A DNA stretch of 36,279 nt from an uncultured Gammaproteobacteria bacterium (GCA_964364745.1 CAYINJ010000002.1:1-36279), one strand, 5' to 3'; shown: positions 4,963 through 36,279, counted from the stretch's first letter. Made by a program: numbers and translations. The notes: a model not told the origin generated them from the sequence alone.

Positions 4963-4988
4963 AGGGGGAGAAAACGACAAAGGGAAAA

Positions 4989-18296: not shown

Positions 18297-19109
18297 ATGC
18301 CCCAATCGTTTTCTGACCCGACGACTGGCGGCAGCCAGGGGGAACTGCGGCGGAGTCAGCAGGCCGCTCGGCGACAACGAGCCACTGAACCGCTGACCGC
18401 GCCGGCCTACCAACCAGGTGAGGCCAAGACCTCCGCTGATGGCTTAGGCATCACTCGGCGTCAGTTGACCGCCGCCGGGCAGGAGCGACTCCAGGCCAGC
18501 CAAGGATTATCCGGCGGTCTGGACGCCCGCCGACAATTGATTGATGAGCAACGAGCTGACCGCCAAACCGAGGCAAGTGCCGGTAAACTATTTCAAGAAC
18601 ATCGACAAGCCCGCCGAGCGGCCCGCGGATCAGAAAAATCAAGGGGTCCGTTGGGGCAAGCGATTGGTGAGACCGCCCGCAAAACCGCGTCAGCTGAATT
18701 ACTAAAACAGGCCTGGTTAAACTTAATCGACAGTATTGGTTTGACTTTTCTATACATCTTCTTCCATTTTTGCGCTCGTTACATCGCCGGTAGTCAATCC
18801 TTTTGCGCCTTTGGTGAAGAGTGGTTTATCGCTCCCAGTTCGGGAATGAAAAGTGCCGCCAAAGCTGGGACTACTGGCTCGGCCAAAGCGGCCGCTAAAA
18901 ACCGGGCTAAAGATAGCGTCTCGTCAAGCCAGGGCGGTGGCGATGATAGCGCCACCTTACTGGAACTCGCTAGCAAACCGGTGGAAGTGGCGGAATTGGT
19001 GGTCTTCGGACTGTTGGCCATCTTACTAATGATCGCCCTGGCCGCGCCATTGGTCGGCCTCTTATCAATCGGGTGGTTCTGGCTGGAAGTGGCCAGCGTC
19101 ATATCCTAA
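18297..19109 (+). CDS. Hypothetical membrane protein (disordered Arg/Gln/Ala-rich N-terminus, C-terminal TM helices)
   Basis: 270-aa ORF with ATG at 18297. TM-like segments GLTFLYIFFHFCARYIAG and VVFGLLAILLMIALAAPLVGLLSIGWFWL. First gene of the pilin-module cluster. Confidence 0.65.
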   Translation: MPQSFSDPTTGGSQGELRRSQQAARRQRATEPLTAPAYQPGEAKTSADGLGITRRQLTAAGQERLQASQGLSGGLDARRQLIDEQRADRQTEASAGKLFQEHRQARRAARGSEKSRGPLGQAIGETARKTASAELLKQAWLNLIDSIGLTFLYIFFHFCARYIAGSQSFCAFGEEWFIAPSSGMKSAAKAGTTGSAKAAAKNRAKDSVSSSQGGGDDSATLLELASKPVEVAELVVFGLLAILLMIALAAPLVGLLSIGWFWLEVASVIS

Positions 19110-19137: not shown

Positions 19138-20370
19138 ATGAGCGATCGTTTGAAAAAAATTCTCTTCATTGTTGGTTTCATCGTCATCACGGTGCTGTTG
19201 GGTTACGCGCTGTATGTCCTATTTTTACGGCAAGCGCCAGCGCCAACCGCACCGCCAACCAATGAACTACCGACCGGCGGTCTGCCGACAGCCGGGCTCC
19301 AGGGTGAGCCAACCTACATCAATGTCAACGGCCAGCTCGTCCCAGCCGCCAACGTCAATGGCACTCCCCCATCGACCATTGATTCCTTTGCTCGCGGTGG
19401 CGTCACGGCGGTGACTGAAGTTAGCAACACTAAGATTCGCGCTATGCAGTTTGGTCCGGACGGCAAGTCGTTAGTCGGCTACGATCCCACCAACGGTAAA
19501 TTTTTACGTTACAACCCTGACGGCACGACTACCGCCATGACCGATGCCGCCTTCCCCAACGCCCGCGATATCGTCTGGGCGCCGGACAGCAATAAAGTGA
19601 TCGTCACTTTTCCGGACAACACCAACGTCTATTATAACTTTAAGACCAAAAAACAGATCACTTTCCCCAGCCACTGGAAAGAATTCGAGTTTTCCTCCGA
19701 CAGTAATAAGTTGGCGTTCAAGAACATGCAACTTGATCGGGAAAACCGCTGGGTGACGGTGACTAATGACGACGGTTCGGCCGGTCGGACCATTGCTCCC
19801 ATTGGCGACAACTCGGATAACATCTCCATCATGTGGTCGCCAGACAGCCGGGTGGTCGGCAATTACCGCGAAAGCATCGACTTCGATCGACAGTACCTGA
19901 TCTTCATCGGTCAAAACCAAGAAAATCTTCCCAGTACCATTATTGAAGGTCGGGGATTTGACGGGAAATACACGCCGGACGGCAGCAACTTGCTCTACAG
20001 CGTCTACTCCTCGTTCACTGACCTCAAACCGAATTTGTGGTTTGTCACCGCCAGCGGTGATCAGACCGGTTTGTTGCGGGTGAACTTAGAGCTCAATACT
20101 TGGGTCGACAAGTGCGCCTTTGCCACTTCATCCACGGTGTACTGCGCGGTGCCTCAATCGCTACCGAAGGGCGCCGGACTGGTCCGCGACATTGCCGACA
20201 CCACCCCAGATAACTTTTATAAAGTGGATCTCCGGACCAGCACCAAGACCCTAGTGGCCGTGCCCGATGGATCATTCACCGCTGAAGATGTCACCGTTAG
20301 CGCGGATGGCAAAACCCTGTATTTTACTGATAAGTCCACCGGGACGGCCCATCAGTTGCGATTAAAATAA
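19138..20370 (+). CDS. Membrane-anchored TolB-like beta-propeller (PD40 repeat) protein
   Basis: N-terminal TM helix ILFIVGFIVITVLLGYALYVLF, followed by repeated PD40-like units: FGPDGKSLVGY, YNPDGTT, WAPDSNKVIVTF, WSPDSRVVG, YTPDGSNLLYS, VSADGKTLYFT. Confidence 0.8.
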   Translation: MSDRLKKILFIVGFIVITVLLGYALYVLFLRQAPAPTAPPTNELPTGGLPTAGLQGEPTYINVNGQLVPAANVNGTPPSTIDSFARGGVTAVTEVSNTKIRAMQFGPDGKSLVGYDPTNGKFLRYNPDGTTTAMTDAAFPNARDIVWAPDSNKVIVTFPDNTNVYYNFKTKKQITFPSHWKEFEFSSDSNKLAFKNMQLDRENRWVTVTNDDGSAGRTIAPIGDNSDNISIMWSPDSRVVGNYRESIDFDRQYLIFIGQNQENLPSTIIEGRGFDGKYTPDGSNLLYSVYSSFTDLKPNLWFVTASGDQTGLLRVNLELNTWVDKCAFATSSTVYCAVPQSLPKGAGLVRDIADTTPDNFYKVDLRTSTKTLVAVPDGSFTAEDVTVSADGKTLYFTDKSTGTAHQLRLK

Positions 20371-20376
20371 TTGCCT

Positions 20377-21495
20377 ATGCGGAGGGTATTATTAGTGACA
20401 ATTCTCGCCCTCTTGAGTTGGCAGTTTTTGCTGTTAGCGCCGGTCGCTTTAGCGGAAGCCCCCCAATCACTGCTTTTTGAAAAACCCACCCTCCAGGTTC
20501 AGTTTCCTTCCCTCCAATTTACTGATTCTGAAAACATCATTGCTAAGGGCCAAGGCAAGATTAAGTATTTTGCGATCCCCTGGATTGCCGAGTATATCAC
20601 CGCCGCTTACCGCTTTGGCGTGGCCATCGCCGGGGTGTTGGCCGTGATTATGATTATCGCTGGCGGATTTGTCTGGATGACCGCCGGCGGCAATTCTAGC
20701 CAAGTCGACACGGCCAAAACCTACATCATTGGCGCCCTGGCTGGTTTAGTGTTGGCGCTGGGCAGCTATACCCTCTTGTGGCTGATTAATCCCAACCTCA
20801 CGCAACTGCCTTTCCTGCGGGTGCCGGTAATTCAGCGGGTTGGTTTGGGGGACTTTTGTCCGCTAGTGGTGTCAAGTCAACAAAAAATATTTACTCTTAA
20901 AGAAGATGGTACGGCCGACAAAGAGGTTCCGATCGGCACAACTATACCATGTGGAAAGCGGCTATTTTTGTCCGACGGAGCTGACAACCAATGTATGGGG
21001 TTAGGAGATTGCTCGGGCAGTCAATTGTGCTTGCCAGACTTCAGTAAGGATATTGTGGCGACCGGTCAAGGTAGTCTAAAATTCGAATTTGATTGTTTCT
21101 CTTCTGCTCAAGACCAGTGTAAAAAGTTAAATGACAATCAGGCCGATAAGGTAGGTTTACCGCACCAGCAATCAACCTGTAACCTAATCAACAGCACGCT
21201 CGCCTATCAATCACCGAACACTGAAAATCAAGGTCGGTGCGTGTGGGTGGATAAGAGTATCATTACAGAAATTATTACTGGCGGCTGGTCTGACGACGGC
21301 TGTTACTGGTGTCCGGATGATCGTTACCAAGATATGCTAACAACATTTAAAGAATACAAAATCAACCCGATTGATGATTGTGCCAACGGACTGGGTAAAA
21401 TTTACGGCCAACTTACGGGGATTGAGGCGCTCGGAGAGCTGTTAAGCAGCGAAGATAAAGAGGCCTGCCTAGCACGGTGGTGCGGTGGCCAGTAA
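20377..21495 (+). CDS. Secreted pilin-module protein 1: signal peptide + VirB2/TrbC-like two-helix module + C-terminal 14-Cys domain
   Basis: ATG at 20377 (MRRVLLVTILALL...ALAEA signal). Conserved block IPWIAEYITAAYRFGVAIAGVLAVIMIIAGGFVWMTAGGNSSQVDTAKTYIIGALAGLVLALGSYTLLWLINP. The C-terminal domain of about 210 aa has 14 Cys and no recognised family. Confidence 0.8.
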   Translation: MRRVLLVTILALLSWQFLLLAPVALAEAPQSLLFEKPTLQVQFPSLQFTDSENIIAKGQGKIKYFAIPWIAEYITAAYRFGVAIAGVLAVIMIIAGGFVWMTAGGNSSQVDTAKTYIIGALAGLVLALGSYTLLWLINPNLTQLPFLRVPVIQRVGLGDFCPLVVSSQQKIFTLKEDGTADKEVPIGTTIPCGKRLFLSDGADNQCMGLGDCSGSQLCLPDFSKDIVATGQGSLKFEFDCFSSAQDQCKKLNDNQADKVGLPHQQSTCNLINSTLAYQSPNTENQGRCVWVDKSIITEIITGGWSDDGCYWCPDDRYQDMLTTFKEYKINPIDDCANGLGKIYGQLTGIEALGELLSSEDKEACLARWCGGQ

Positions 21496-21499
21496 TTAT

Positions 21500-22651
21500 A
21501 TGACCCGTTCTTTCTTTTTTGCTTTAATCGCTAGCGCCATTATCTTAATCCCCCAGGTCAGCTTGGCCCTCCTGACTGGCCCTTCGGTTGGTTCGACCTG
21601 CTGTATCTGTGTGAAAGATGGCGTATATGTGGCGGAAGGGGCGGCGTTTCAGTCCCCCGATGGCTTTGGAGCCAAGTGTGCTTCAGAAAGTTGTCAGGTT
21701 GAATATTCGGCTTGTACCGATCAGGCCGTAAAAGACAAGATTAATGGATTGAACACCACGGTCAACTCGGTTACGCCCCTGGTCACGCCCACCACCCAAG
21801 TCGTCATTCCCGGACTGACCTTCACCAAAACACTTGACCTCAAAGACGGGGCCAATGGCTTGAGGTTTTATGAAATACCGTGGATTGCTGAATATATCAG
21901 CGCCGTCTATCGCTGGGGTGTCGGTATCGCCGGCGTGTTGGCGGTGGTGATGATTATCATCGGTGGCTTCACTTGGCTGACCGCCGGGGGTAACTCGAGC
22001 CAAGTTGAAACGGGCAAGAAATATATCATCGGCGCCTTGGCTGGTTTGGTCTTTGTCATGAGTAGTTATACTATTTTGTGGTTGATTAACCCCGAGTTGG
22101 TCAAACTGAAGTCGATTGCTATTCCGTATGTTGAACGATTATCACTGGAGATTCCCGAGTCAGAGCCCGAAAACATTGCCGCCGAAAAAACTGGTAATTT
22201 GACTGCCGTGGGCGAGCGGAAAACAACCGAATTCATCGTCATTCATACTGCCGCTGGACTGCAGAGTCGCAACGAAGTCGACGCTTTCCATCGTACTAAG
22301 GGTTGGGCTGGTATTGGCTATAATTTCTACATTGAACGCAACGGCCAGTGGGTTGAAGGCCGAGGTGAAAGCAAAGTTGGCGCTCACGCGGTGGGCTACA
22401 ATGCTAAAAGCATTGGCATTTCTTATGCCGGCTGCGTTAATTTTCAAGTCGCCAATCAACCTTTGGCGACCGCTCTAGCCAAAGAAACTATCACTCAAAC
22501 CCAACTCGATACTTTAATCGAACACATTAAACAACTACAGCAAAAATATAATATCCCGCGCAATAAAGTACTGGACCACCGTGAAACTGGTGCGCCTAAG
22601 GCCTGCTCTTGCCTGAATATGGACGAGATTAGAGCCAAAATTAATCCGTGA
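21500..22651 (+). CDS. Secreted pilin-module protein 2: signal peptide + 6-Cys module + two-helix pilin-like module + N-acetylmuramoyl-L-alanine amidase (Amidase_2/PGRP type)
   Basis: ATG at 21500. Conserved block IPWIAEYISAVYRWGVGIAGVLAVVMIIIGGFTWLTAGGNSSQVETGKKYIIGALAGLV...SYTILWLINP. C-terminal amidase motifs: EFIVIHTAAG, GWAGIGYNFYIERNG, GAHAVGYNAKSIGISYAG, LDHRE. Confidence 0.85.
   Translation: MTRSFFFALIASAIILIPQVSLALLTGPSVGSTCCICVKDGVYVAEGAAFQSPDGFGAKCASESCQVEYSACTDQAVKDKINGLNTTVNSVTPLVTPTTQVVIPGLTFTKTLDLKDGANGLRFYEIPWIAEYISAVYRWGVGIAGVLAVVMIIIGGFTWLTAGGNSSQVETGKKYIIGALAGLVFVMSSYTILWLINPELVKLKSIAIPYVERLSLEIPESEPENIAAEKTGNLTAVGERKTTEFIVIHTAAGLQSRNEVDAFHRTKGWAGIGYNFYIERNGQWVEGRGESKVGAHAVGYNAKSIGISYAGCVNFQVANQPLATALAKETITQTQLDTLIEHIKQLQQKYNIPRNKVLDHRETGAPKACSCLNMDEIRAKINP
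21573..21753 (+). repeat. 181-bp direct repeat, copy 1 (encodes the 6-Cys N-terminal module of paralog 2)
   Basis: Identical to 22742-22922 except for one base (gtaaaagacaag versus gtaaaggacaag). The protein segment LTGPSVGSTCCICVKDGVYVAEGAAFQSPDGFGAKCASESCQVEYSACTDQAVKDKINGLN is identical in both. Confidence 0.9.
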
Positions 22652-22653
22652 TT

Positions 22654-23931
22654 ATGCGACTCTTTTATTTTCTTCTCCGATTAACTGTCAGCGTTGCCAT
22701 GGTGGTTTTGGTTTTGCTTCCACAAGCTGGGGTAGCCTTATTGACTGGCCCTTCGGTTGGTTCGACCTGCTGTATCTGTGTGAAAGATGGCGTATATGTG
22801 GCGGAAGGGGCGGCGTTTCAGTCCCCCGATGGCTTTGGAGCCAAGTGTGCTTCAGAAAGTTGTCAGGTTGAATATTCGGCTTGTACCGATCAGGCCGTAA
22901 AGGACAAGATTAATGGATTGAATACTAAGATTGAACTTCTCCCCCTGACCCCGCCCGATCTCCAAGTCGACATCCCTGGTTTTCCTAAATTCAGTACCGA
23001 GCTGGAGTTAGACGAGCAAAAGACCTTTTACAATATTCCTTGGATCGCCGAGTATATCAACGCCGTCTACCGTTGGGGGGTGAGCATTGCCGCTGTTTTG
23101 GCGGTGATCATGATTATCGCCGGCGGCCTGACCTGGCTGACGGCCGGCGGCAACAGCAAACAGGTGGAGACCGCCAAGACCTACATCATCGGCGCTTTGA
23201 CCGGTCTGGTGTTGGCCTTGGGCAGCTACACTATTTTGTGGCTGATCAATCCGCAACTAACACTCCTCAAGCCGTTGCGGATTCCCTACGTGCAAAATGT
23301 GGCGCTTGAAGTCGGGCCGCGTATTTCTTCATACTTGATTGCTAATCCCGGCCAAGAAGGCAAAAAAGAACAGTTTAACAACGCTGCTTGTCCAACCAAA
23401 GAAGAGGCCCAGGCCGGTTTTGATGGGTTTATTACTTCTTACTACGCGCCAGCTTATGGTGAAAAAGGCAACTACAGTAGTTTTGAGTGCAACGTAGCGA
23501 TGCAGTGTTCTTGTCCTGGTCCGGGTGGCAATAAATATCATAAAGACGAGTCAAAAACCTGTCGCTTCCCGGCTAAAGTCCTCGGTAAGGGTTTCAGTGA
23601 TAACCCCTGCATGCCCATTCCGGCCGGCAGTATTCCTGGCCAGAGTTATTGTAATAAAAGTGCTTCGGGCACCGCACCAGTTGCTTTCAAAACCGCGGCC
23701 GCTGATATTGCGGGAGACAAGATCGGGGTCAATTGCTGGAGCGTTGGTGACCAGTTTACGATTGAAGGCATTGGTGGCCAAGCGGCTGGTCCCTGGACGG
23801 TCCAAGATAGCGGGTCGGATATTAAGAGTCGCCATTTCGATCTCTTTGTCGGTACTAATTTCCAAGCCACAAAATCAATGGGTGGCGTCTACAAGATTAA
23901 GTTCACCAAGTGTCAAAAATGTGGCTTCTAA
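22654..23931 (+). CDS. Secreted pilin-module protein 3: signal peptide + 6-Cys module + two-helix pilin-like module + C-terminal 3D (MltA-like) domain
   Basis: ATG at 22654. Conserved block IPWIAEYINAVYRWGVSIAAVLAVIMIIAGGLTWLTAGGNSKQVETAKTYIIGALTGLV...SYTILWLINP. C-terminal GFITSYYAP...AADIAGDKIGV...WTVQDSGSDIKSRHFDLFVG matches the 3D-domain pattern DtGgaIkg.riDlf. Confidence 0.85.
   Translation: MRLFYFLLRLTVSVAMVVLVLLPQAGVALLTGPSVGSTCCICVKDGVYVAEGAAFQSPDGFGAKCASESCQVEYSACTDQAVKDKINGLNTKIELLPLTPPDLQVDIPGFPKFSTELELDEQKTFYNIPWIAEYINAVYRWGVSIAAVLAVIMIIAGGLTWLTAGGNSKQVETAKTYIIGALTGLVLALGSYTILWLINPQLTLLKPLRIPYVQNVALEVGPRISSYLIANPGQEGKKEQFNNAACPTKEEAQAGFDGFITSYYAPAYGEKGNYSSFECNVAMQCSCPGPGGNKYHKDESKTCRFPAKVLGKGFSDNPCMPIPAGSIPGQSYCNKSASGTAPVAFKTAAADIAGDKIGVNCWSVGDQFTIEGIGGQAAGPWTVQDSGSDIKSRHFDLFVGTNFQATKSMGGVYKIKFTKCQKCGF
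22742..22922 (+). repeat. 181-bp direct repeat, copy 2 (encodes the 6-Cys N-terminal module of paralog 3)
   Basis: See copy 1. The offset between copies is 1169 bp. Confidence 0.9.
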
Positions 23932-24509: not shown

Positions 24510-26588
24510 TTATTCCCAGTGCACCCGATCCCACTTCCCCACCCGTTGGCGCAACAGCGGGTGGTGATTTAATTGCGGATCAGCGGCCAAAACCGCCAGC
24601 GCCGCCATTTTAGCTCGTTTGATGTTTTTGACATCAAACAGCGTGGCAAATTTAAGCTCGGGGAAACCGCTCTGGTTGCTGCCCAAAACATCGCCCGGCC
24701 CCCGGAGCTTAAGGTCTTGTTCGGCTAAACTAAATCCGTCTTGACTCTTGACCACGGCCGCCAGGCGCTGACCACTCTCCGCCCCGGCCGCGTCAGTCAA
24801 CAGCCAACAATATGACTGGTGTGCTCCCCGCCCCACTCGGCCGCGAAATTGGTGCAGTTGGGCCAGACCAAAACGTTCGGCTCCTTCGATTAACATCATC
24901 GTGGCGTTGGGTACGTCAACCCCCACTTCGATGACTGACGTGGCTACCAGCACGTCAATTTCGCCGGCCACAAACGCGGCCATGACGCGATCTTTCTCGC
25001 TGCTGGTTAGTTTTCCGTGCAGCAGCCCTAACCGCCGATGAGGAAAAACCTCTCGCCCCAGCCGCTCATATTCGGTCTTGACTGCGGCCGACGCGACAGT
25101 CGGTGAGGGATCAATTAGCGGGCAAATGATAAAGGCCTGGCGGCCGGCCGCCAATTCGGCATCAACGGTTCGATATAACTCCGCTCGCTGACTCGGTAAC
25201 ACCACGGCCGTCTTAATCGGCTGCCGGCCGGCCGGTAATTCATCCAGCAGCGAAATGTCTAAGTCGCCATAGAGGGTTAGGGCTAGTGACCGTGGGATTG
25301 GCGTGGCCGTCATCGAGAGAAAGTGTGGGATCAGACCGCTGGGCGACATTTGCTGCAGGGCCTGGCGTTGTTCCACCCCAAAGCGATGTTGCTCATCGAC
25401 AATCGCTAAACCCAGCCGCTGAAACACGACCGCCTCCTGGATCACGGCGTGGGTGCCGATCAGAATTTGGATCGCGCCGCGCCGTAACTGTGACAATAAC
25501 AGCGCTTTAGTGATGGGTTCCGTCCGAGTGGTAATGTGGCGATAAGTGCGGGTATAGACCCCCACCGTCACGCCAGTGTCCACAAATAAACGGCTAAAGC
25601 TCTGGTAGTGTTGCCAAGCCAGGATCTCGGTTGGGGCCATGATCACGGTTTGCTGGCCGGCCGACGCGACTTGGCGGGCGGCGGCGGCGGCCACGATGGT
25701 TTTACCACTGCCGACATCCCCGTCCAGCAGCCGACTCATCGGATGAGCCCGGCCGAGGTCTTGGATTATTTCCCAGGCACTGCGCCGCTGGCATTGAGTT
25801 AATTGATACGGCAGTCGGCCCAAGAAGTCCTTCATCAGGTCAGCGGCAAAGGGAATGGCCGACGCCGCGGCCGCGGCTAGCTCCTGCCGCGACATTTGAT
25901 TGCGGAGCTGGATAAAGAAAAACTCGTCAAAGCGGAGACGTTCTTGAGCGCGGGCTAACGTGGCGGAAGAATCAGGAAAATGTATCTGACTGATGGCCTC
26001 GGTCAAGGAAACAAACCCGTGCTGGTGGATCAATTCAGCCGGCAGATATTCGGCTAGCTGACCGACAGCCGTCAACGCCTGCTTCATTAAAAATCTTAAT
26101 TGCTTGGGAGTAATTCCCTTGGTCACGCTATAAATTGGTACTAGCCGGCCAGTATGGGTCGGGCCGTTGATGGCAGTTCGTGGGTTGATTTTTTCATAAC
26201 TAGCGGCGGCGATCGCCGCCCCACTCGGGTCTGACTTGCCGGAAACACCGAGCGTATCCCCGACTTTGATCGTCCGGGTGACGAATGGCTGATTAAACCA
26301 CCGCACCGTGATGGTGTGCTGACCGTCAGTGATCGCCGCTTCCGTAATCAATAAGTGCCGCTTCCACGAACGGTAGCTTTTGATTCTGGCGACCTGGCCT
26401 TGAATTGTGACCACCTCCCCAGCCGTAATCTGATCCAGCGGTACGAGGTGGCTGAAATCAGCATACCGAAAAGGATAATACTCAACTAGGTCAGCCACGG
26501 TTGCAATGCCGAGCTTTTTCAGCGGCCCACTTAATTGCCGGGCGACATGGTGGAAAGTGGTGACTGGTTGTTGGATCTTAATCCTCAT
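24510..26588 (-). CDS. recG: ATP-dependent DNA helicase RecG
   Basis: Helicase motifs DVGSGKT, DEQHRFG, TATPIPR and QLHQFRGRVGRG, with an N-terminal wedge/OB region. Start set at ATG 26588 (MRIKIQQPV...) because the longer ORF runs through tRNA-Arg. Confidence 0.93.
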   Translation of the reverse strand: MRIKIQQPVTTFHHVARQLSGPLKKLGIATVADLVEYYPFRYADFSHLVPLDQITAGEVVTIQGQVARIKSYRSWKRHLLITEAAITDGQHTITVRWFNQPFVTRTIKVGDTLGVSGKSDPSGAAIAAASYEKINPRTAINGPTHTGRLVPIYSVTKGITPKQLRFLMKQALTAVGQLAEYLPAELIHQHGFVSLTEAISQIHFPDSSATLARAQERLRFDEFFFIQLRNQMSRQELAAAAASAIPFAADLMKDFLGRLPYQLTQCQRRSAWEIIQDLGRAHPMSRLLDGDVGSGKTIVAAAAARQVASAGQQTVIMAPTEILAWQHYQSFSRLFVDTGVTVGVYTRTYRHITTRTEPITKALLLSQLRRGAIQILIGTHAVIQEAVVFQRLGLAIVDEQHRFGVEQRQALQQMSPSGLIPHFLSMTATPIPRSLALTLYGDLDISLLDELPAGRQPIKTAVVLPSQRAELYRTVDAELAAGRQAFIICPLIDPSPTVASAAVKTEYERLGREVFPHRRLGLLHGKLTSSEKDRVMAAFVAGEIDVLVATSVIEVGVDVPNATMMLIEGAERFGLAQLHQFRGRVGRGAHQSYCWLLTDAAGAESGQRLAAVVKSQDGFSLAEQDLKLRGPGDVLGSNQSGFPELKFATLFDVKNIKRAKMAALAVLAADPQLNHHPLLRQRVGKWDRVHWE

Positions 26589-29115: not shown

Positions 29116-29700
29116 CTATTGCCAATAGGCCCCGTCCACCAGCCATGACTGGCCGGCCGTTACGAAATCAAGCCGTAAATCCTGATTAATCACCTGGTCT
29201 GGTTGGCCATTCTGGCTGGTTCGTCGCTGGGTGTGGACCAAAATCGTCGCTGCCGTCCCACTCATCGTCACCGCTTCGGTCGCCAGCGCCCGTGTTGACA
29301 CGACGATGTTTTGATCGGCGGTTTTGGCGATCTGGGTTTGGATATAACCGTCTGACCACTGCCGCATCGACTCGGTCATCATCGGTTGCACTTCACGGAT
29401 ATTCCGAAAATTGGCGGTACTAGCATAGCTGCCGAAGCGTTCGGCGAAAGTCATCGCTAGACGCTCAACGCTGATTTGCTGCTGCTGGCTTTCCGTTAGC
29501 GTCGGCGTGTTCGCCGTGGTGACGATGTCTTCCCCGCTGCGACCATCAATTACCAATCGGTTGGCCGCCGTGACGGTGTTTTGGGTGGTGGTGGCCAACT
29601 CGGGAGTAGCGGCCCGTTGCCACCAGAAAATCACGCCGACCACGATCACCAAGATCACGACCACACCACCGAGAATCAACATTAATTTTTGACGGTCCAT
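29116..29700 (-). CDS. Membrane-anchored hypothetical protein, possible VirB8/ConB-like (NTF2-like) T4SS component
   Basis: N-terminal TM helix LMLILGGVVVILVIVVGVIFWW, then a domain of about 150 aa with a helix-then-beta pattern. It lies 12 nt downstream of the virB4-like gene. The fold assignment is a guess from position and size. Confidence 0.6.
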   Translation of the reverse strand: MDRQKLMLILGGVVVILVIVVGVIFWWQRAATPELATTTQNTVTAANRLVIDGRSGEDIVTTANTPTLTESQQQQISVERLAMTFAERFGSYASTANFRNIREVQPMMTESMRQWSDGYIQTQIAKTADQNIVVSTRALATEAVTMSGTAATILVHTQRRTSQNGQPDQVINQDLRLDFVTAGQSWLVDGAYWQ

Positions 29701-29712
29701 AAATTATGATGG

Positions 29713-31575
29713 TTAAATGGCGGCGTCCGGAATCGCTCCCGGCGCGGCCGGCTGTCCTTGCTCGGCGGCAAATTGTTCTTTGGCCGCTTGGATTTCCAAT
29801 AATTGTTGGGGGTTGGTAGTGATCAGTTGATCTTCGTTCGGTGAAGCCACCACTTCGATGGCCGCGTGTTTATTGCCAGCGAAGAAAATCCCCTGCCCGA
29901 CGGCCGACTCCAGCAATAGATACTTTTCCCCTTCGGTTAACAAAAATGTTTTTTGGACTCGATCAATCGACGCCGGTGACTGCTTCATCAACAGCTGTAG
30001 CGCCGAGTTGTTGACGATCGCTTGGCCGTAGGGCGAAAGTAAAAAGTCATTGACATCTTGGGTGATAGTGGTGACGCCGAGATAGTACTTGCGGCAGCGT
30101 TTGACCAAGGCATAGATAAACTTGGCCGAGTCCTCTTGTTGCATCAACCACCAGGCCTCATCGATGATCAACAGTCGCTTTTTGCTCTGGGACCGAACGA
30201 CGTTCCAAATGTAGTTGACGAGGTTATAGATCGCCAGCGGCCGGAGCTCGTCTTCGAGATCGCGGACCGAAAAACAAACCAACTGGTTGTCCATGTCAAC
30301 GTTAGTCGGCCGATTCAGCAGCCCGGCAAAGGTGCCTTCGGTATGCTTTTTCAGTCGCAGCGCGACGTTGGCGCCGCCCTCCATCCCCTCCAAAATATCA
30401 ACTAAATCCTGCATAATTGGCGGCTCGACCGTCGCCAAATCCGACTCGGGAGTGATATCTTTTTTGGCGTAGGTCTCCAGCAGCGCCCGGTCCACGATCG
30501 AGTCCTCTTCGGCCGTCAGCGAACCGACCATCAGTCGCACCAACCCCTTGACGGTGATGACGGCGCTGCGAATAATATCTTCGACCGTGAAATCCTTGTC
30601 CACCGGCCGCGGCAGGTCAAAGGGGTTGACTTTACTGTCGGAGGCCAGCGAAATGTTGATGTAAGTACCACCGACGGCCTCACACAGCCGCTGGTATTCT
30701 TTTTCCGGATCAATCACGATAATGTCAGTCCCCAGCATCAAGCTGCGCAAGATCTCCAGTTTAACCGTGTAGCTCTTGCCGGCGCCGGCCGTGGCAAAGA
30801 CCACCATGTTGGCGTTTTGGAGTGAGAAGCGGTCGAACAGAATTAAGCTGTTATTGTGGCGGTTGATGCCGTATAAAATACCGTTATTTGATGACAATTC
30901 AAAGGAGATAAAGGGAAATGACGAGGCAGCCGGTGATGTATTCATGTTGAAAACGACAGTGAGTTCATCTCGGCCGAGCGGCAAAGTGGAAGTAAACCCT
31001 TGTTCGGCCTGATAGAGCACATTGCGCGAGTAGACCAGCTTCGAGCCAAAAATGTCTTCAAGGTTGCGGGTGCGATCTTCAAGTTGTTCGAGGGTGTCGG
31101 CGTACAGCGTGACGTACAAAGCATACTGAAAGAAGTGCTCGATACCTTGGGTCAAGTCATCGCGCAGTTTTTCGATGTCTTGTAGCGCCGTTTCCCGCAA
31201 GGGATCGCGCGGCGCGCCTTTTTCCCGGTCGGCACTCAATTCGGCTTCTAAATTCCCGGCTCGTTTCTTGAGATCTTTTAAGATCGCGCCGGCCTTGACC
31301 GGATAGAAATGCATGGCAATATCAATCGGCGTCGGGAAGTTGATGATCGGCACGAACCAACCGACGGCAATATAGCGCGGATAGGTAATGACAAACGCCG
31401 TCCGGACATATTTGTTGCCCAGCCGGACATAAGTCGACTGAATATCCATCGCCGATGGCGCGATCAGGTCAATGATCGAGATCGTGCCGGCGCGATAGCG
31501 CTGCTCTTCGATCAGCGCTTCTTTACCGATCGCGACCGTGGCGTCGACAGCGGGTTTTTTAGTAAATAAGGCCAT
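29713..31575 (-). CDS. virB4: VirB4-family type IV secretion ATPase (Gram-positive/TrsE-like type)
   Basis: 620 aa. Walker A VVFATAGAGKSYTV, Walker B RLLIIDEAWW, and the N-terminal VirB4 domain pattern (YVRTAFVITYPRYIAVGWFVPII). Confidence 0.9.
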   Translation of the reverse strand: MALFTKKPAVDATVAIGKEALIEEQRYRAGTISIIDLIAPSAMDIQSTYVRLGNKYVRTAFVITYPRYIAVGWFVPIINFPTPIDIAMHFYPVKAGAILKDLKKRAGNLEAELSADREKGAPRDPLRETALQDIEKLRDDLTQGIEHFFQYALYVTLYADTLEQLEDRTRNLEDIFGSKLVYSRNVLYQAEQGFTSTLPLGRDELTVVFNMNTSPAASSFPFISFELSSNNGILYGINRHNNSLILFDRFSLQNANMVVFATAGAGKSYTVKLEILRSLMLGTDIIVIDPEKEYQRLCEAVGGTYINISLASDSKVNPFDLPRPVDKDFTVEDIIRSAVITVKGLVRLMVGSLTAEEDSIVDRALLETYAKKDITPESDLATVEPPIMQDLVDILEGMEGGANVALRLKKHTEGTFAGLLNRPTNVDMDNQLVCFSVRDLEDELRPLAIYNLVNYIWNVVRSQSKKRLLIIDEAWWLMQQEDSAKFIYALVKRCRKYYLGVTTITQDVNDFLLSPYGQAIVNNSALQLLMKQSPASIDRVQKTFLLTEGEKYLLLESAVGQGIFFAGNKHAAIEVVASPNEDQLITTNPQQLLEIQAAKEQFAAEQGQPAAPGAIPDAAI

Positions 31576-31578
31576 AGA

Positions 31579-32277
31579 TTAACCACTAAGCTGAATCTTG
31601 CCCACGGCCGCTAACGGTTCTTGTTCGGAAGTGTCGGGGTTGTATGAGTTGTAGTACAGCTCAATCAGCCCTTGGGTGTCGAGTCGGGTGGCCGATAACC
31701 CCACTGATCCCAGCCCATTAGCTGTCTGCCCCACTCGCTGTTCTAGTTCTTTCATCCGTTGCTCAAACTTTTTGGCACTTAATTTTACCAGCGACGCCGG
31801 CGTAAATAACTCTTGGAGTCGGGACCAAAAACTCCGCTGTTTATCGGAGAGCGGATCGTACGGCACGACAACATAGAACCGCTTGGTCATGATGTCGCCT
31901 AAGCTGATCAGCTCACCGACGTACTGGCGGTAGTCGCTGATTTGATTGCGCAACAATTCATTGCTTTGTTCCTTTTCTATTTTTTCCAAATTTTGCAAAT
32001 AGGGAGTGATGTCGGTTTTCCGTGACTGGACGACAATTTGCAGCGGGTAATTCAAGGAGTTCAAAAACCCCATGTAAGCGCTAATGATCGCCTCTTGTTC
32101 ACCGGTCGACTTCAGCGCGAAGTTGATACTAGACACCATCAGTACGCCCCGCAGAGTGCCGTCGCGCATGACGACCGTACTGTTGCGAATTTCCGCGATC
32201 GGCAAGCTGCGTTGGGTCGCGGGGTATTTACTTTTTGGTTTTGACGCCATAATTGTTTGATTGGTCGTCGAGCTCAT
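31579..32277 (-). CDS. Hypothetical soluble protein resembling a stand-alone VirB4 N-terminal domain (no ATPase motifs)
   Basis: 232 aa. IAEIRNSTVVMRDGTLRGVLMVSSINFALKSTGEQEAIISAYMGFLNSLNYPLQIVVQSRK follows the N-domain pattern of VirB4/TrbE proteins, with no Walker A. The stop is 3 nt before the virB4 start. An alternative ATG lies at 32250. Confidence 0.7.
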   Translation of the reverse strand: MSSTTNQTIMASKPKSKYPATQRSLPIAEIRNSTVVMRDGTLRGVLMVSSINFALKSTGEQEAIISAYMGFLNSLNYPLQIVVQSRKTDITPYLQNLEKIEKEQSNELLRNQISDYRQYVGELISLGDIMTKRFYVVVPYDPLSDKQRSFWSRLQELFTPASLVKLSAKKFEQRMKELEQRVGQTANGLGSVGLSATRLDTQGLIELYYNSYNPDTSEQEPLAAVGKIQLSG

Positions 32278-32707
32278 GCGACGAGTAGGCCCCGCCAGTG
32301 TTGACTACCAGCGCCAGCTCGTCTAGCCGAGAGCGGGCGGCAAAATGTTTGACCGGGACCACCAGTTCTTTCGTTTCCTCAATCGCCGGGGCCAGCAATT
32401 CTTTAACTTCCACTGCCGTCAGTTGTTTATTCCACAGCCGGCGGCGGGAGCGCTTCAGGGTCTCCATGACATTGAGGAAAAAATAATGGAACGGGCGGCC
32501 GTTGACCTTGAGAAACGCCACGATGCCAAAAATACCAAAGGTCAGTACGCCGAAGATCACGAAGGCCCAAAAATCAAACAGCTTATACTCGGCGGCGATT
32601 AAGAGCATGCCGACTAACATAATAATAAACTGCCGGACCGTGATCGGCCCGATGATTTTCGGTTCGACATCAATGAATTGCGGGACTAGAAAATGATCAA
32701 GGGCCAT
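32228..32707 (-). CDS. PrgI-family (VirB3-like) small membrane protein
   Basis: FLVPQFIDVEPKIIGPITVRQFIIMLVGMLLIAAEY followed by a second TM helix FVIFGVLTFGIFGIVAFL. Typical PrgI architecture and typical position upstream of virB4. Confidence 0.75.
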   Translation of the reverse strand: MALDHFLVPQFIDVEPKIIGPITVRQFIIMLVGMLLIAAEYKLFDFWAFVIFGVLTFGIFGIVAFLKVNGRPFHYFFLNVMETLKRSRRRLWNKQLTAVEVKELLAPAIEETKELVVPVKHFAARSRLDELALVVNTGGAYSSHELDDQSNNYGVKTKK

Positions 32708-32717
32708 AGCCGTGTCT

Positions 32718-33803
32718 CTATTCTAACACGTTATTCAACTTCGCTAAAGCGGCAAATTCAGCGGCGGTCAGGGTTGGCTGCCTTGCGGCGGCTCGCGTCG
32801 CCAACACGGCTGGCAGCGGCTGACCCGTCTCGACGCTATCTTTACCAACCGCCAAATACAGGCGGTGGACTTCACTGGCCTGCCAAGCGGCAATAGCCGC
32901 GACCCGCTTCGGCCAGCCCTCACGTTCCAGTAGGTCAATTTTTCCTTTAATTTTTTCAGCGGCCCGAGCCGGATTGGCGTCCAGCGCGTGCCAATCGACC
33001 AGTCGAAATTGTCGTAACTCCTCAATTGGCCCGACCAACCGAACCCCCGGGCGAATATCAGTAAATTTGTCAGCCCGCGGCGCCAGCGGTCGACTCGGCC
33101 CTGGTGATGCCGTGGTCGGCGACATTGCTTTAGCCGGTCGTTGGAATCGCTTCGTCAGGCGGCCGAGCCAATTGGCTGCTTTGGCCGCCCCGGCGGTCGG
33201 TAGCGGTTGACTAATAAATGGCTGGCTCGTCGCTGGTGGCTGCGGCCTCAAACTAGCCACCGGCGGACTGACGGGCTGGCTGGTCGGCCGGGGCGGCCGA
33301 GCCGGTGGTCGACTGGTTAAAATCTGCACGGTGCGATCGACGGCGGCTGGCCGAACAGCGGGTGGTGGCGGCATCAATTCGTGCGCTAGTTCGGTCGGGG
33401 TAAACCGCGGTAACGGCCGAGGTGGTGTGGACGGTCCTGGCGCGTCGGTCGCTGACGATTCAGTTTTATCAATCAAAGTTAATATGGCTCCGGCCGCCGA
33501 CTCGGACAACCCCACTCCACCACTGACGGTCTCACGAACTAACAACTCCTTGGTTTGCCAACTAGTGCGAATCCCCTTCCAGTCAGCCAGCACCGCGTTT
33601 TTGAGCCGGCGATTCAGCAACTCATCCGTGATTGGCAACGACAGTTTCTTGATGGCTGACTCAAGTTCTTGCCAACGCTGCTCGTCCGCCGACCATCCCC
33701 CGGCTGGCTGACTGGCCGGCGGGGTTGGGTCCAAAAGCGAAAAATGTCCGCGAGGATCGCGGATTGGAATAGCGTCAAGATTATTCAAAATATCGTCGGC
33801 CAT
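32718..33803 (-). CDS. Hypothetical protein with central proline-rich linker
   Basis: ATG at 33803 (MADDILNNLDAIP...); the ORF-track TTG at 33854 would overlap the upstream gene. Contains a central PPRPLPRF...RPPARPPRPTSQPVSPP segment. No TM helix, no NTPase motif. Confidence 0.7.
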   Translation of the reverse strand: MADDILNNLDAIPIRDPRGHFSLLDPTPPASQPAGGWSADEQRWQELESAIKKLSLPITDELLNRRLKNAVLADWKGIRTSWQTKELLVRETVSGGVGLSESAAGAILTLIDKTESSATDAPGPSTPPRPLPRFTPTELAHELMPPPPAVRPAAVDRTVQILTSRPPARPPRPTSQPVSPPVASLRPQPPATSQPFISQPLPTAGAAKAANWLGRLTKRFQRPAKAMSPTTASPGPSRPLAPRADKFTDIRPGVRLVGPIEELRQFRLVDWHALDANPARAAEKIKGKIDLLEREGWPKRVAAIAAWQASEVHRLYLAVGKDSVETGQPLPAVLATRAAARQPTLTAAEFAALAKLNNVLE

Positions 33804-33816
33804 GGTTAGATGCGCT

Positions 33817-35235
33817 TTAGGCCTGCCACCGGAATTGATTTTTGGCCATGTCAAAGTAAGCCAGCTGTCGATACTGTTCCCGGCCGGCTCGGGCCAAACT
33901 ATTAGCCACTTTCAGGCCCAGCCGAGCCGCCTCGTCTTCGGCTAAGTGTAATTGCCCTTCGAAGATAGCTTCAAGAAATAGTCGTAACCAGCGCGGCGCG
34001 GTGGGATTGAGCCGGAATTGGCGAATATCTTCTGGCCGGTTTTGTTGGGTCAGGCCGGCCTCAATCACTAGGCCTAGGCCGGTGGGCTGGGCCACCGCAT
34101 CGCCGAGCGTGCCGAGTTCGGCGAGGGCCATAATTGCCGCCACCACTTCAATTTTGTCAGGGGATTTGCTTTTGGCTAATAAACCCAACTGCTCGGTTAG
34201 CTTGGCGCTGTCCCGTTGATTGGTGGCCAAGAGCTGCTGCTGGCGCTCGGCGATGGTCTGACTTTCAGTGGGGTCACCTTGATATCGCCGCATGATTTCC
34301 TCTCGGGGGATGATGGCTGGTGCTGGTGCTGCTCTGGGCGACAGCGGCACCGGGGCTGGCGGTCGGGTGACGACTGACCTAACCGCCGTAGCCGGTGACG
34401 GCGCAATCACCAACGGCGCTGGCGCCGCTAGCTGGCTAGTCGGAACTGATGGCTGGACTGGCGTTTGCATCCGGGTCATTTCTTCATCAACCAAGCGAGC
34501 AATTTTGCCGTCGGGGTCAACTTTTTCCAGGCCGCCTTCTCGATATTCATAAAGATTGCCTTCGACATCAGAGGTAAACAGCACGTCTTCGTTGCCGGCC
34601 GGGGTCAAGGAAGAAAACTTTAACTCTTCATAAAGGTTAAATAGCCCTTCGACCATGGTGCGTTCGGCGGCAGGCAGTTTATTGAAAGTCAGGTGTTTGG
34701 TCAGCCAATCACGGTAAGCCAGCTCATCAGCCGGTTTGGCGCCAAAGGTCTCGACGTATTCTTCCAGCCAATGCTTGACCGTCGGCGTAACCGTTTGGTT
34801 ATCAACGTGTTGGATCGCCAGCGTGGTTAACACTTCATTATTATTCAGCAGCGCGTCGCGCAATTGACCACGATATCGGTCACGTTCCTCGATGAACAAT
34901 TCGCTTCGCAGGCGGTTTTTCATTTTGTCGGCCACGGTAAACCCGCCATCCGCTTCCGCCCGCAAACCGGCGACCAGCTGCTCTTTGAACAACGCCAACA
35001 CTTCATTCCACGGGATGGCTGTCAGCGCCACCCACTTCACTGGCGGCAGGAGTGCCTGGTATTGGGCATAGACATCTGGCGCTTGCTCCGCGACCCGCTG
35101 CAGGCGCAGCAACTGACCGAGATATTTCAATAAATCAACCGCTTGGCTGACATCGTCAGCCGCGACAATATCCGCCGCCATTTTTTGAACGCGGTCTTGA
35201 TTGGTTTGATCAGTTAAAATAAATGGCGTAACCAT
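33817..35235 (-). CDS. Hypothetical protein with Pro/Ala-rich linker
   Basis: 472-aa ORF with ATG at 35235 and a tight operon junction on both sides. No recognisable motifs and no TM helix. Confidence 0.75.
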   Translation of the reverse strand: MVTPFILTDQTNQDRVQKMAADIVAADDVSQAVDLLKYLGQLLRLQRVAEQAPDVYAQYQALLPPVKWVALTAIPWNEVLALFKEQLVAGLRAEADGGFTVADKMKNRLRSELFIEERDRYRGQLRDALLNNNEVLTTLAIQHVDNQTVTPTVKHWLEEYVETFGAKPADELAYRDWLTKHLTFNKLPAAERTMVEGLFNLYEELKFSSLTPAGNEDVLFTSDVEGNLYEYREGGLEKVDPDGKIARLVDEEMTRMQTPVQPSVPTSQLAAPAPLVIAPSPATAVRSVVTRPPAPVPLSPRAAPAPAIIPREEIMRRYQGDPTESQTIAERQQQLLATNQRDSAKLTEQLGLLAKSKSPDKIEVVAAIMALAELGTLGDAVAQPTGLGLVIEAGLTQQNRPEDIRQFRLNPTAPRWLRLFLEAIFEGQLHLAEDEAARLGLKVANSLARAGREQYRQLAYFDMAKNQFRWQA

Positions 35236-35243
35236 ACGTCAGC

Positions 35244-36279
35244 TTAGGTGGTTTTGGCTCGAGCGGCGACCTTTTTTATCTCGTCCTCTACTTCGGCCTT
35301 AATCGCGTTCATTGAGCTTTCCCCAATCTTAACGCCTTTCTCGCCAGCTACTCGCTTCATCATACTGACAATCTGTGATCCTAACACTTCCGTAATTTCC
35401 TGTTCATTAGAGAGGAGGTCAGCTAACGTGTCCGGCCGCAAATAACCAATATTCTTCTTGGCGTCATTACCCGTAAAGTTATTCTTCTGCATTTTCAGCC
35501 AAACCCGACCCTGGAGCTCAAGGTGGCGGGTGTTTTCGTCACCCACGGACATGATTTGAGTTGATTTGACCTGCCGCAGCTGGTTGGCCACCGTTCCGCC
35601 TTGGCCGACTAACTTGTTCAACGCCATGCGAGCGTTAATCTCCGGCGGGTGCTTGGTGAATGCCCCATCGGAGTATTTATAACCGGCCACAAAGTTGCTG
35701 TCGCCGTTTTGGTGGGCAACATAGGCCACGTTTTTCAGTAACGACATGCTGGCTTGATCGCCCATGCTGCCGCGCGCCACCATCTGCTCTTGGCGGAACG
35801 CCTCCAACCCTTTGACGTTGCCTTCATATCCCTGCATCGACAGCACTTCGCCTAATTTGCCGGTTTTGGCCGCTAGTTGCATCAAAATCCTGACTTCATT
35901 TTTGTTGGCGGACGCGATCGCCGATCCGAGCGCTTCAGTCATTTCATCCAAATCCAAACTTTGTTCTTCGAGCTGCTTCATCCGCTCACTGCTTCCTTCT
36001 CGGCCAGCCGCAGTGGCCATATCGGCCGAAGCTCCTGCCCATTTCCTGCGGCGTTCGGCAGCGGTACCGGCCTGTTCACTAAGCACCTGATCACGCCGCG
36101 CTGCTTGTTCATATTGCCGCTTCAGCGCGTCTTTATCCGCCCCGGGCTGCGTGGCGGCCAACTGCGCGGCGATGATTTGTCGTTCTTGATCTTTTTTGTT
36201 GTAAGCATCAATTGCGTTGATTCGCTGGGTCAAATCGTCCTCTCGTTTTTTAGCCGCCGGTCGTTGTTCTGTGACATCA
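35244..36279 (-). CDS. Hypothetical protein, 5'-truncated by the window edge
   Basis: The ORF-track start at 36233 is a TTG. The frame remains open (..DVTEQRPAAKKREDDL..) up to base 36279, so the gene probably starts outside the window. The visible N-terminal part is charged and coiled-coil-like. Confidence 0.7.
   Translation of the reverse strand, partial: DVTEQRPAAKKREDDLTQRINAIDAYNKKDQERQIIAAQLAATQPGADKDALKRQYEQAARRDQVLSEQAGTAAERRRKWAGASADMATAAGREGSSERMKQLEEQSLDLDEMTEALGSAIASANKNEVRILMQLAAKTGKLGEVLSMQGYEGNVKGLEAFRQEQMVARGSMGDQASMSLLKNVAYVAHQNGDSNFVAGYKYSDGAFTKHPPEINARMALNKLVGQGGTVANQLRQVKSTQIMSVGDENTRHLELQGRVWLKMQKNNFTGNDAKKNIGYLRPDTLADLLSNEQEITEVLGSQIVSMMKRVAGEKGVKIGESSMNAIKAEVEDEIKKVAARAKTT

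Follow-up and report, generated by a model that had tools for sequence, protein, structure and literature searches.

A tandem array of pilin-like membrane hairpins joined to predicted peptidoglycan hydrolases, typical of a large Patescibacterial family

How a monoderm bacterium could build a VirB2-type structure across its wall without VirB1 is a question on which three consecutive genes of a groundwater Patescibacterium may bear. They lie at positions 20377-23931 of a DNA stretch of 36,279 nt, titled as an uncultured Gammaproteobacteria bacterium (GCA_964364745.1 CAYINJ010000002.1:1-36279) and hereafter called the window. All positions are counted from its first letter. Each gene joins a signal-like segment and a pilin-like two-helix hairpin to a C-terminal module, and two of these modules are predicted peptidoglycan hydrolases. 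We found the trio to be a typical member of a large family, and a variant of the known Patescibacterial pilin arrays of type IV secretion systems (T4SSs). No paper describing pilin-hydrolase fusions was found among open-access papers and bioRxiv, so the family does not appear to be one that has already been characterised. In the reading to which we give an even chance, the enzymes are carried by a pilin scaffold to the site of T4SS action and open the wall there, thereby doing the job of VirB1 in cis.

The three open reading frames (ORFs) lie in tandem on the + strand, at 20371/20377-21495 (gene 1), 21485/21500-22651 (gene 2) and 22648/22654-23931 (gene 3), where the second figure is the start used in the corresponding database entry. 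Neighbouring genes abut or overlap by a few bases. The features of the array are as follows:

20377..21495, + strand: gene 1, predicted signal peptide, pilin-like hairpin and 14-Cys module (ATG at 20377, the start in database entry P0034; T4SS_pilin E value 8e-4)
20575..20793, + strand: gene 1 pilin-like block of 73 amino acids (aa), residues 69-141 (78% and 84% identical to the blocks of genes 2 and 3, respectively)
20794..21492, + strand: gene 1 C-terminal 14-Cys module, 233 aa (14 Cys kept in orthologues; without a catalytic pattern)
21500..22651, + strand: gene 2, predicted signal peptide, 6-Cys N-terminal module, pilin-like hairpin and Amidase_2 domain (ATG at 21500, the start of entry P0001; Pfam)
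21569..21760, + strand: gene 2 N-terminal 6-Cys module (near-identical to the gene 3 module)
21875..22093, + strand: gene 2 pilin-like block of 73 aa, residues 131-203 (T4SS_pilin, 35.0 bits)
22223..22600, + strand: gene 2 Amidase_2 domain, predicted N-acetylmuramic acid (MurNAc)-L-Ala amidase of the T7-lysozyme/PGRP type (Pfam E value 4e-16)
22654..23931, + strand: gene 3, predicted signal peptide, 6-Cys N-terminal module, pilin-like hairpin and 3D/MltA-like module (start as in entry P0002; Pfam)
22738..22929, + strand: gene 3 N-terminal 6-Cys module (identity to the gene 2 module)
23035..23253, + strand: gene 3 pilin-like block of 73 aa, residues 130-202 (Pfam, block alignment, AlphaFold)
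23419..23928, + strand: gene 3 predicted double-psi beta-barrel module (3D/MltA-like lytic transglycosylase) with a Cys-rich insert (Pfam 3D, 27.3 bits; structural model)

The encoded proteins are 374-427 aa long, with 185-233 aa lying C-terminal to the block. Each N-terminus carries a hydrophobic, signal-like segment that ends in an Ala-X-Ala-type site, and the hydropathy profiles showed two further hydrophobic stretches, both of which fall inside the common 73-aa block. The original prediction had described three consecutive genes of one build at this position, and the ORFs, blocks and Pfam domains confirmed it. It had also given every protein a signal peptide followed by a short extracellular segment; the signal-like segment was found throughout, but in genes 2 and 3 the short segment is replaced by a Cys-rich module of ∼95 aa that precedes the block and contains six Cys in each protein. 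These two modules (21569-21760 and 22738-22929) are 96% identical at the nucleotide level and 98% at the amino acid level, whereas the adjoining blocks share only ∼78% of their nucleotides. This drop indicates a sharp mosaic boundary in the sequences, and the N-terminal part therefore appears to have been recently duplicated or converted between the two genes.

The block, which had been estimated at about 75 aa, is exactly 73 aa long, fits the predicted consensus and is 78-84% identical between any two of the three genes. At the DNA level, the array genes matched each other with E values of 8e-120 (genes 2 and 3) and 2e-44 (genes 1 and 3), well outside the range of chance, and a six-frame search of the window with the block profile found no fourth copy. 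The Pfam T4SS_pilin profile (PF18895) matched gene 2 at 35.0 bits, above its gathering score of 26.6, and the whole model was covered by the block. Genes 1 and 3 scored 19.8 and 24.6 bits, which is under the cut-off, yet at E values of at most 1e-3 and with blocks 78-84% identical to that of gene 2. The NCBIfam search gave weak matches only, to a 'pilin-like conjugal transfer protein' of integrative and conjugative elements in Mollicutes (E values 0.013 and 0.031).

Conservation of the block was then compared across 27 proteins with differing outer modules, in which it was 73 aa long with zero indels. Tyr, Gly, Ile and Pro residues were invariant and a Lys in the loop was nearly so. Paralogous blocks within a genome (78-84% identity) were more alike than orthologous blocks between genomes (66-67%), which indicates concerted evolution. 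At the level of sequence, the fixed length, the invariant residues and the homogenisation within a genome argue that the hairpin has specific partners and is not a plain anchor.

An AlphaFold model of the full-length gene 3 protein showed two long helices at residues 130-163 and 168-198, with predicted local distance difference test (pLDDT) values of 81-92. This numbering is that of the 425-aa modelled sequence starting at 22654, to which two are added for the ORF numbering. The hairpin was the only confident part of the model, the mean pLDDT of which was 52. A Foldseek search with this model returned generic helical hairpins at E values above 1 and no pilin from the PDB, and is uninformative on VirB2 either way. 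The conserved unit also exceeds the Pfam domain: family members carry the pattern P-x-L-x-I-x-I-P-G-L ahead of the block (for example, window 22990-23034), and N-P-x-L-x-x-x-K-P-I spans the final two residues of the block and continues into the downstream sequence (for example, window 23254-23300). In the model, short strands predicted from these flanks lie to both sides of the hairpin and seem to grip its outer end.

Two of the three Pfam pilin scores lie under the gathering score, and beyond this nothing was found to suggest that the architecture is an artefact of chance hydrophobic similarity, mis-called ORFs or an assembly chimera. Blocks that are 78-84% identical would not be expected from it, and orthologous arrays occur in many genomes. 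A near-identical three-gene array was also present on an independent ENA contig from the Hainich groundwater metagenome (0.2 µm filter), which refutes this explanation; we regard its probability as negligible.

The C-terminal modules were analysed individually. The Amidase_2 domain foreseen in gene 2 was recovered by Pfam with an E value of 4e-16 (60 bits against a cut-off of 26), and its PDB matches included 6SRT (2e-16) and T7 lysozyme (2e-13). Residues His254, Tyr279, His365, Lys372 and Cys374 correspond to His17, Tyr46, His122, Lys128 and Cys130 of the T7 enzyme, the second His being offset by one residue. Judged from this alignment, the catalytic set, namely the zinc ligands His-His-Cys together with Tyr and Lys, is intact.

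The module of gene 3 had been expected to be 3D/MltA-like. It matched Pfam 3D at 27.3 bits (cut-off 23.8), and a sequence search of the PDB gave no match. Its structural model reached a pLDDT of 75, and the top eight Foldseek matches in the PDB were all MltA (probability 0.5-0.85), at E values of just ∼0.03; these were followed by other double-psi beta-barrels, namely GH45 enzymes, expansins, barwin and YuiC. A profile of the module aligned with YuiC at an E value of 2.4e-5, placing Asp353, Asp387 and Asp398 on all three '3D' aspartates, and Asp398 also aligned with Asp308 of MltA, the catalytic residue mutated in entry 2PIC. Among the eleven relatives collected, the second and third aspartates were invariant and the first was variable. 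A family-specific Cys-rich insert lies between the two halves of the barrel. The alignments and the model thus identify the predicted fold as a 3D/MltA-like double-psi barrel in which the catalytic Asp is kept.

All 14 Cys of gene 1 lie within its 233-aa C-terminal part, which had been described as belonging to no recognised family and indeed found no match in Pfam, NCBIfam or the PDB. One relative was obtained by a word-indexed homologue search and three more by local iteration, all in the syntenic sub-lineage, where the module always occupies the first gene of the array; it was found only in this sub-lineage. All 14 Cys are kept in three orthologues. The residues invariant in six family members are Cys, Gly, Asn, Trp, Leu and Arg only, almost all of them Cys and Gly, and form no catalytic pattern. 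The module is therefore read as a non-enzyme, probably a disulfide-knotted binding or structural domain.

The original prediction had suggested a survey of Patescibacteria for the same fusions, and this showed that the architecture is not rare. A search with gene 2 found pilin-amidase fusions 39-51% identical to it in other Patescibacteria (for example, Falkowbacteria QQS60166.1), and the same search showed the block joined to M23, M15 and C39-type peptidases. An exhaustive search with the block profile collected 63,957 representative clusters at E values of at most 1e-3 and 10,898 at 1e-10 or better; the best 150 clusters were mostly proteins of 250-500 aa with one full block. All of the 96 closest single-block representatives matched PF18895 at E values of at most 1e-3, and ∼40% of them carried VanY/M15, Amidase_2, 3D, NlpC/P60, SLT, C39-like or Amidase_5 domains. 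The fusion thus constitutes a large family in ABY1-type Patescibacteria. In the GTDB species representatives, 79 loci were identified in Falkow-, Uhr-, Magasanik-, Komeili- and Nomurabacteria, among others. They contain 241 block ORFs. The C-terminal extension reaches 100 aa or more in 124 of these and is nearly absent in 90; both counts are biased to the fused subfamily since the query was taken from it.

Two kinds of locus were distinguished: one comprises one to four fusion genes in tandem, and the other is a long array of pilins that are either small or extended at the N-terminus. Long mixed arrays that hold hydrolase fusions, and would have supplied evidence for minor pilins, were considered and rejected; the larger members of the long arrays are pilins with an extended N-terminus and nothing beyond the block, and the two kinds of locus are therefore distinct. 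A fusion set typically combines one enzyme that cuts the glycan with another that cuts the peptide, and arrays elsewhere again began with a Cys-rich gene of no recognised family and also encoded a peptide cutter and a glycan cutter of the 3D type. A further group of proteins (P0045 with 1147 aa, P0048 with 1775 aa, P0040, P0039 and P0053) contains from six to at least 12 T4SS_pilin hairpins each, as concatenated repeats of 80-100 aa separated by short linkers that contain Cys, and signal peptides are absent from the interior of the chain. From their sequences, they resemble pilin 'polyproteins' in which 12-24 membrane helices are covalently strung together. Many metagenome-assembled genomes annotated by third parties and carrying typical Patescibacterial loci (L014, L016, L017, L026, L027 and others) are titled 'uncultured Gammaproteobacteria', which looks like a placeholder or a wrong taxonomic label.

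One conserved N-terminal unit combined with many alternative C-terminal enzymes is also what would be expected of polymorphic effectors directed against hosts or competitors. The hairpin would then be a trafficking module, and the variable enzymes, once released or displayed, would lyse neighbouring cells or open them, in a manner that might be likened to polymorphic toxin systems or evolved VgrG spikes. The tandem arrays, with their gain, loss and gene conversion, and the epibiont lifestyle of cultivated Patescibacteria (PMC10633639, PMC12102498) agree with this view. We nevertheless consider it unlikely, as no immunity genes stand beside the enzymes, no recognisable cleavage or release motif was found in the proteins, the wall that such enzymes face first is that of the producer, and the first gene of the array is non-catalytic.

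The genes around the array were examined with respect to both its immediate partners and the T4SS. The relevant features of the window are as follows:

18297..19109, + strand: 270-aa protein, membrane helices at the C-terminus, leading the co-directional gene string before the array (ORF; no Pfam or NCBIfam match)
19138..20370, + strand: membrane-anchored PD40/TolB-like beta-propeller, ending one base before the gene 1 ORF (PD40 repeat E value 5.8e-5 and weak propeller matches)
29116..29700, - strand: 194-aa protein adjoining virB4 (homologues by virB4 in L007, L014, L020, L021, L042, L069, L028 and L046)
29713..31575, - strand: VirB4-type ATPase, C-terminal P-loop part (P-loop_TraG 2e-28, AAA_10, DUF87)
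31579..32277, - strand: separate gene for the VirB4 N-terminal (TraC-like) domain (weak TraC_F_IV match)
32228..32707, - strand: PrgI, VirB3-like (PF12666, E value 2.4e-6)

A TolB-like propeller had been predicted upstream of the array, and both the gene and its broader association with the fusions were borne out. Propeller homologues occurred in 18 of the 39 long fusion loci and almost always preceded the fusions; in ten of the 18 they shared the strand and lay no more than 300 nt away. The propeller gene often ends a few bases ahead of the first fusion gene or of an intervening gene for a DsbA-like protein, such a gene being present in 23 of the 39 loci. Propeller, DsbA or both were found in 32 of the 39, one of them within 300 nt in 25, and the order propeller, DsbA, fusion was seen in nine. 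DsbA/thioredoxin-like genes abut the fusions in L004 (3214-3948), L005 (6188-6895), L006 (3410-4156) and L007 (9424-9999), and none adjoins them in the window. An abutting DsbA fits outward-facing, disulfide-bonded modules.

Homologues of the 270-aa membrane protein occupy the same position in L001, L014, L020, L021, L028, L042 and L046, and the gene order ClpB, membrane protein, PD40 propeller, array, DNA glycosylase is retained in relatives. The close relative L001 has orthologues of genes 1 and 3 only and lacks the amidase gene, which therefore appears, from this comparison, to be a recent addition or loss. Array and virB4 are separated by 5.8 kb containing DNA glycosylase, RecG, SOD and ComF-like genes, a recG/comF/virB4 layout that matches the one published for class ABY1; in L007, L014, L020 and L021 the distance is 5.7-7.8 kb. 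The window otherwise contains chromosomal housekeeping genes (DnaE, PheST, RseP, MurI, PGM, LemA, HtpX-like, ClpB, RecG and SOD). An origin from a mobile element or prophage was considered and rejected, given these housekeeping flanks with conserved synteny. Promoter and terminator scans stayed at background level, and the single feature that stood out was a hairpin at 24539-24564, past the last gene of the string.

Several further observations concern the flanking genes. The division of VirB4 into two genes is probably real, because it is kept in the relative L007 (16802-18655 and 18657-19349), the N-terminal part of which matches the TraC-like family PF26593. Three large ORFs on the - strand (32718-33854, 33817-35235 and 35244-36233) lie upstream of PrgI in the T4SS cluster and matched no family; only the first has detectable relatives by PrgI, in L007 and L069. 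Any of the three could encode a missing VirB6- or VirB8-like part. DnaE is found in two - strand ORFs (1454-3343 and 3355-4980) split by a frameshift, and another frame reads through the junction (…GLLKIDFLGLKNL…). The L007 orthologue is a single 1210-aa gene, and the split in the window represents an assembly error or a pseudogene.

Comparison with described systems places the trio close to the Patescibacterial VirB2-like pilins, with which it shares PF18895, the signal peptide followed by a two-helix hairpin, tandem paralogues and the phylum. There are 441 such tandem arrays described, all of small proteins, with an average identity of 25% and at most 54% over whole proteins (Quinonero-Coronel et al., 2025). 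Those pilins measure ∼100-185 aa and carry no enzyme domains, whereas here modules of 185-233 aa follow the hairpin and two of them are predicted hydrolases; the hairpins themselves are ∼80% identical, against the 25% average that refers to whole proteins. Described PF18895 members in general stand alone at ∼100-190 aa, a size that the three proteins do not fit. The fusions are accompanied by a propeller gene, a DsbA gene or both rather than by virB4 as for the described pilins, and the trio lies outside the T4SS operon, unlike classical VirB2/TrbC, the gene for which adjoins virB3/virB4.

Southlakia epibionticum provides the most direct comparison. Its essential T4SS locus encodes six small PF18895 pilins, SEML1_0014-0019 (PMC10633639), and 0018 and 0019 additionally match PF04956 (TrbC/VirB2). 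Beside its virB4 stand two separate genes, one for a lysozyme/glucosaminidase/Cys-protease and one for an M15B-like peptidase (SEML1_0006/0007), and these homologues of peptidase and lysozyme are reported to be essential for growth as an epibiont (Quinonero-Coronel et al.). Pilin and hydrolase parts are thus separate, co-located and essential in Southlakia and fused here, and by the gene-fusion ('Rosetta stone') argument they would therefore be expected to work together.

Wall hydrolases of monoderm T4SSs, such as PrgK of pCF10, TraG of pIP501, CwlT of ICEBs1 and TcpG, are membrane-tethered, face outward and attack more than one peptidoglycan bond, which lets the T4SS traverse a thick wall. 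The array enzymes resemble them, as well as SEML1_0006/0007, in being predicted outward-facing, tethered enzymes, and the same wall-crossing job is proposed for them. Each known enzyme is a protein of its own, held by an ordinary N-terminal anchor and built from SLT, glucosaminidase, CHAP or NlpC-P60 domains. In the present array, a pilin-type hairpin takes the place of that anchor, the Amidase_2 domain and the 3D/MltA barrel sit on separate genes, and the genes lie outside the virB4 operon. SLT and NlpC/P60 domains are present in other members of the fusion family and not in the enzymes of the window. The likeness to VirB1 is therefore one of proposed function and not of family membership. 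Structural proteins with a built-in wall hydrolase are known from other machines, including the evolved VgrG3 of the Vibrio cholerae type VI secretion system, flagellar FlgJ and the phage tail lysins T4 gp5 and phi29 gp13. By analogy, the logic may be the same, in that a subunit of the apparatus covalently bears the hydrolase and cutting is confined to the point of passage, although the folds and machines are unrelated. YuiC/MltA and T7 lysozyme/PGRP are the families to which the gene 3 and gene 2 modules belong, with catalytic residues in place; unlike those enzymes, the modules follow a two-helix membrane hairpin, and that of gene 3 has the Cys-rich insert.

On this basis, a mechanism can be proposed in which the three proteins act as 'evolved pilins'. 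They would be exported through a Sec signal peptide and seated in the cytoplasmic membrane by the hairpin, helix 1 running out-to-in and helix 2 in-to-out, with the short conserved loop inside. The N-terminal Cys-rich modules and the C-terminal modules would then face the cell wall in disulfide-bonded form. Gene 2 would cleave the MurNAc-L-Ala bond between the glycan and its stem peptide, gene 3 would cleave the glycan strand in the manner of MltA, and gene 1 would contribute a non-catalytic, probably binding, module. We propose that the hairpin would be recognised, and possibly polymerised, by the VirB4/VirB3-type machine encoded 5.8 kb away; the ABY1-type recG, comF and virB4 neighbourhood of the window counts in favour of such a coupling. 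The enzymes would thereby be positioned where the T4SS apparatus must cross the peptidoglycan, and the VirB1-type wall opening would be supplied in cis in a group in which most members with VirB2-like pilins appear to lack VirB1. The wall opened could be the cell's own, and that of a host too if the hairpins are extruded. The murein-cutting surface organelle put forward in the original prediction is likewise a conjecture.

Several results weigh against this mechanism. The prediction of a VirB2/TrbC-type pilin held as regards the T4SS_pilin profile, which gene 2 matches above the gathering score, but direct homology to VirB2/TrbC did not follow. The Pfam search found no match between the block and PF04956 (VirB2/TrbC) at E values of at most 1, a search of PDB sequences with the block profile found no pilin, and an hhalign comparison with six genuine VirB2/TrbC proteins was weak (probability 27%, P 6.7e-4), with the helix-loop-helix in register. 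The homology to classical VirB2/TrbC suggested by these sequences is thus indirect, by way of the Southlakia PF18895 proteins that also match PF04956. The six-frame block-profile search of the window found no small stand-alone pilin of the block family, and we know of no pilus of the fused-hairpin kind that has ever been seen. On geometric grounds, a VirB2-like filament would be expected to become crowded if every subunit bore a globular module of 100-230 aa at each end. The VirB4/PrgI genes predicted near the array are present 5.8 kb downstream; this linkage is, however, a trait of the sub-lineage, and virB4 lay within 10 kb of the fusions in just six of the 45 long loci, so that the fusions lack a general link to the T4SS by operon.

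The absence of virB4 near the other 39 of these loci would be expected if the proteins were housekeeping autolysins on a pilin-derived anchor. The hairpin would then serve as a tether, perhaps as an oligomerisation unit, in remodelling of the cell's own wall for growth or division independently of the T4SS, and the propeller and DsbA would be envelope-biogenesis helpers. The housekeeping setting of the array between ClpB and a DNA glycosylase, with its conserved synteny, would suit ordinary autolysins, as would the finding that no immunity-like gene lies between the three genes; both count further against a T4SS role. The enzyme classes of the family (amidase, lytic transglycosylase, DD/LD-peptidases and NlpC/P60) also resemble a full autolysin set. 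A simple tether, however, would not be expected to show a fixed length of 73 aa, a conserved cytoplasmic loop and homogenisation within a genome, and the same domain forms the essential T4SS pilins of Southlakia. The rapid turnover of the array among close relatives, as seen in the amidase-free L001 and the conversion of the N-terminal module, would likewise be unusual for core division enzymes. We therefore hold this alternative to be possible, and less probable than wall opening at the T4SS.

Wall opening at the T4SS could also take a bolder form, in which VirB4 extracts the fused hairpins and polymerises them, with or without small pilins from other loci, into a filament that bears the amidase, the lytic transglycosylase and the binding module on its surface or at its tip. 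We regard such a self-drilling pilus as doubtful, at about one chance in four. If it exists, it would dissolve the Patescibacterium's own wall and then that of its host, and would explain why VirB1 is missing as well as how these epibionts gain access to the host membrane.

Current genome annotation names these proteins by their enzyme domain only, and their pilin part has been missed. The T4SS and its pilin array are essential to the epibiotic life of the sole genetically studied Patescibacterium, and the family described here offers a concrete, testable answer to how a monoderm might build a VirB2-type structure across its wall. It also highlights two unstudied partner genes, those for DsbA and the TolB-like propeller, and supplies candidate enzymes for the breaching of host walls by ultra-small bacteria.

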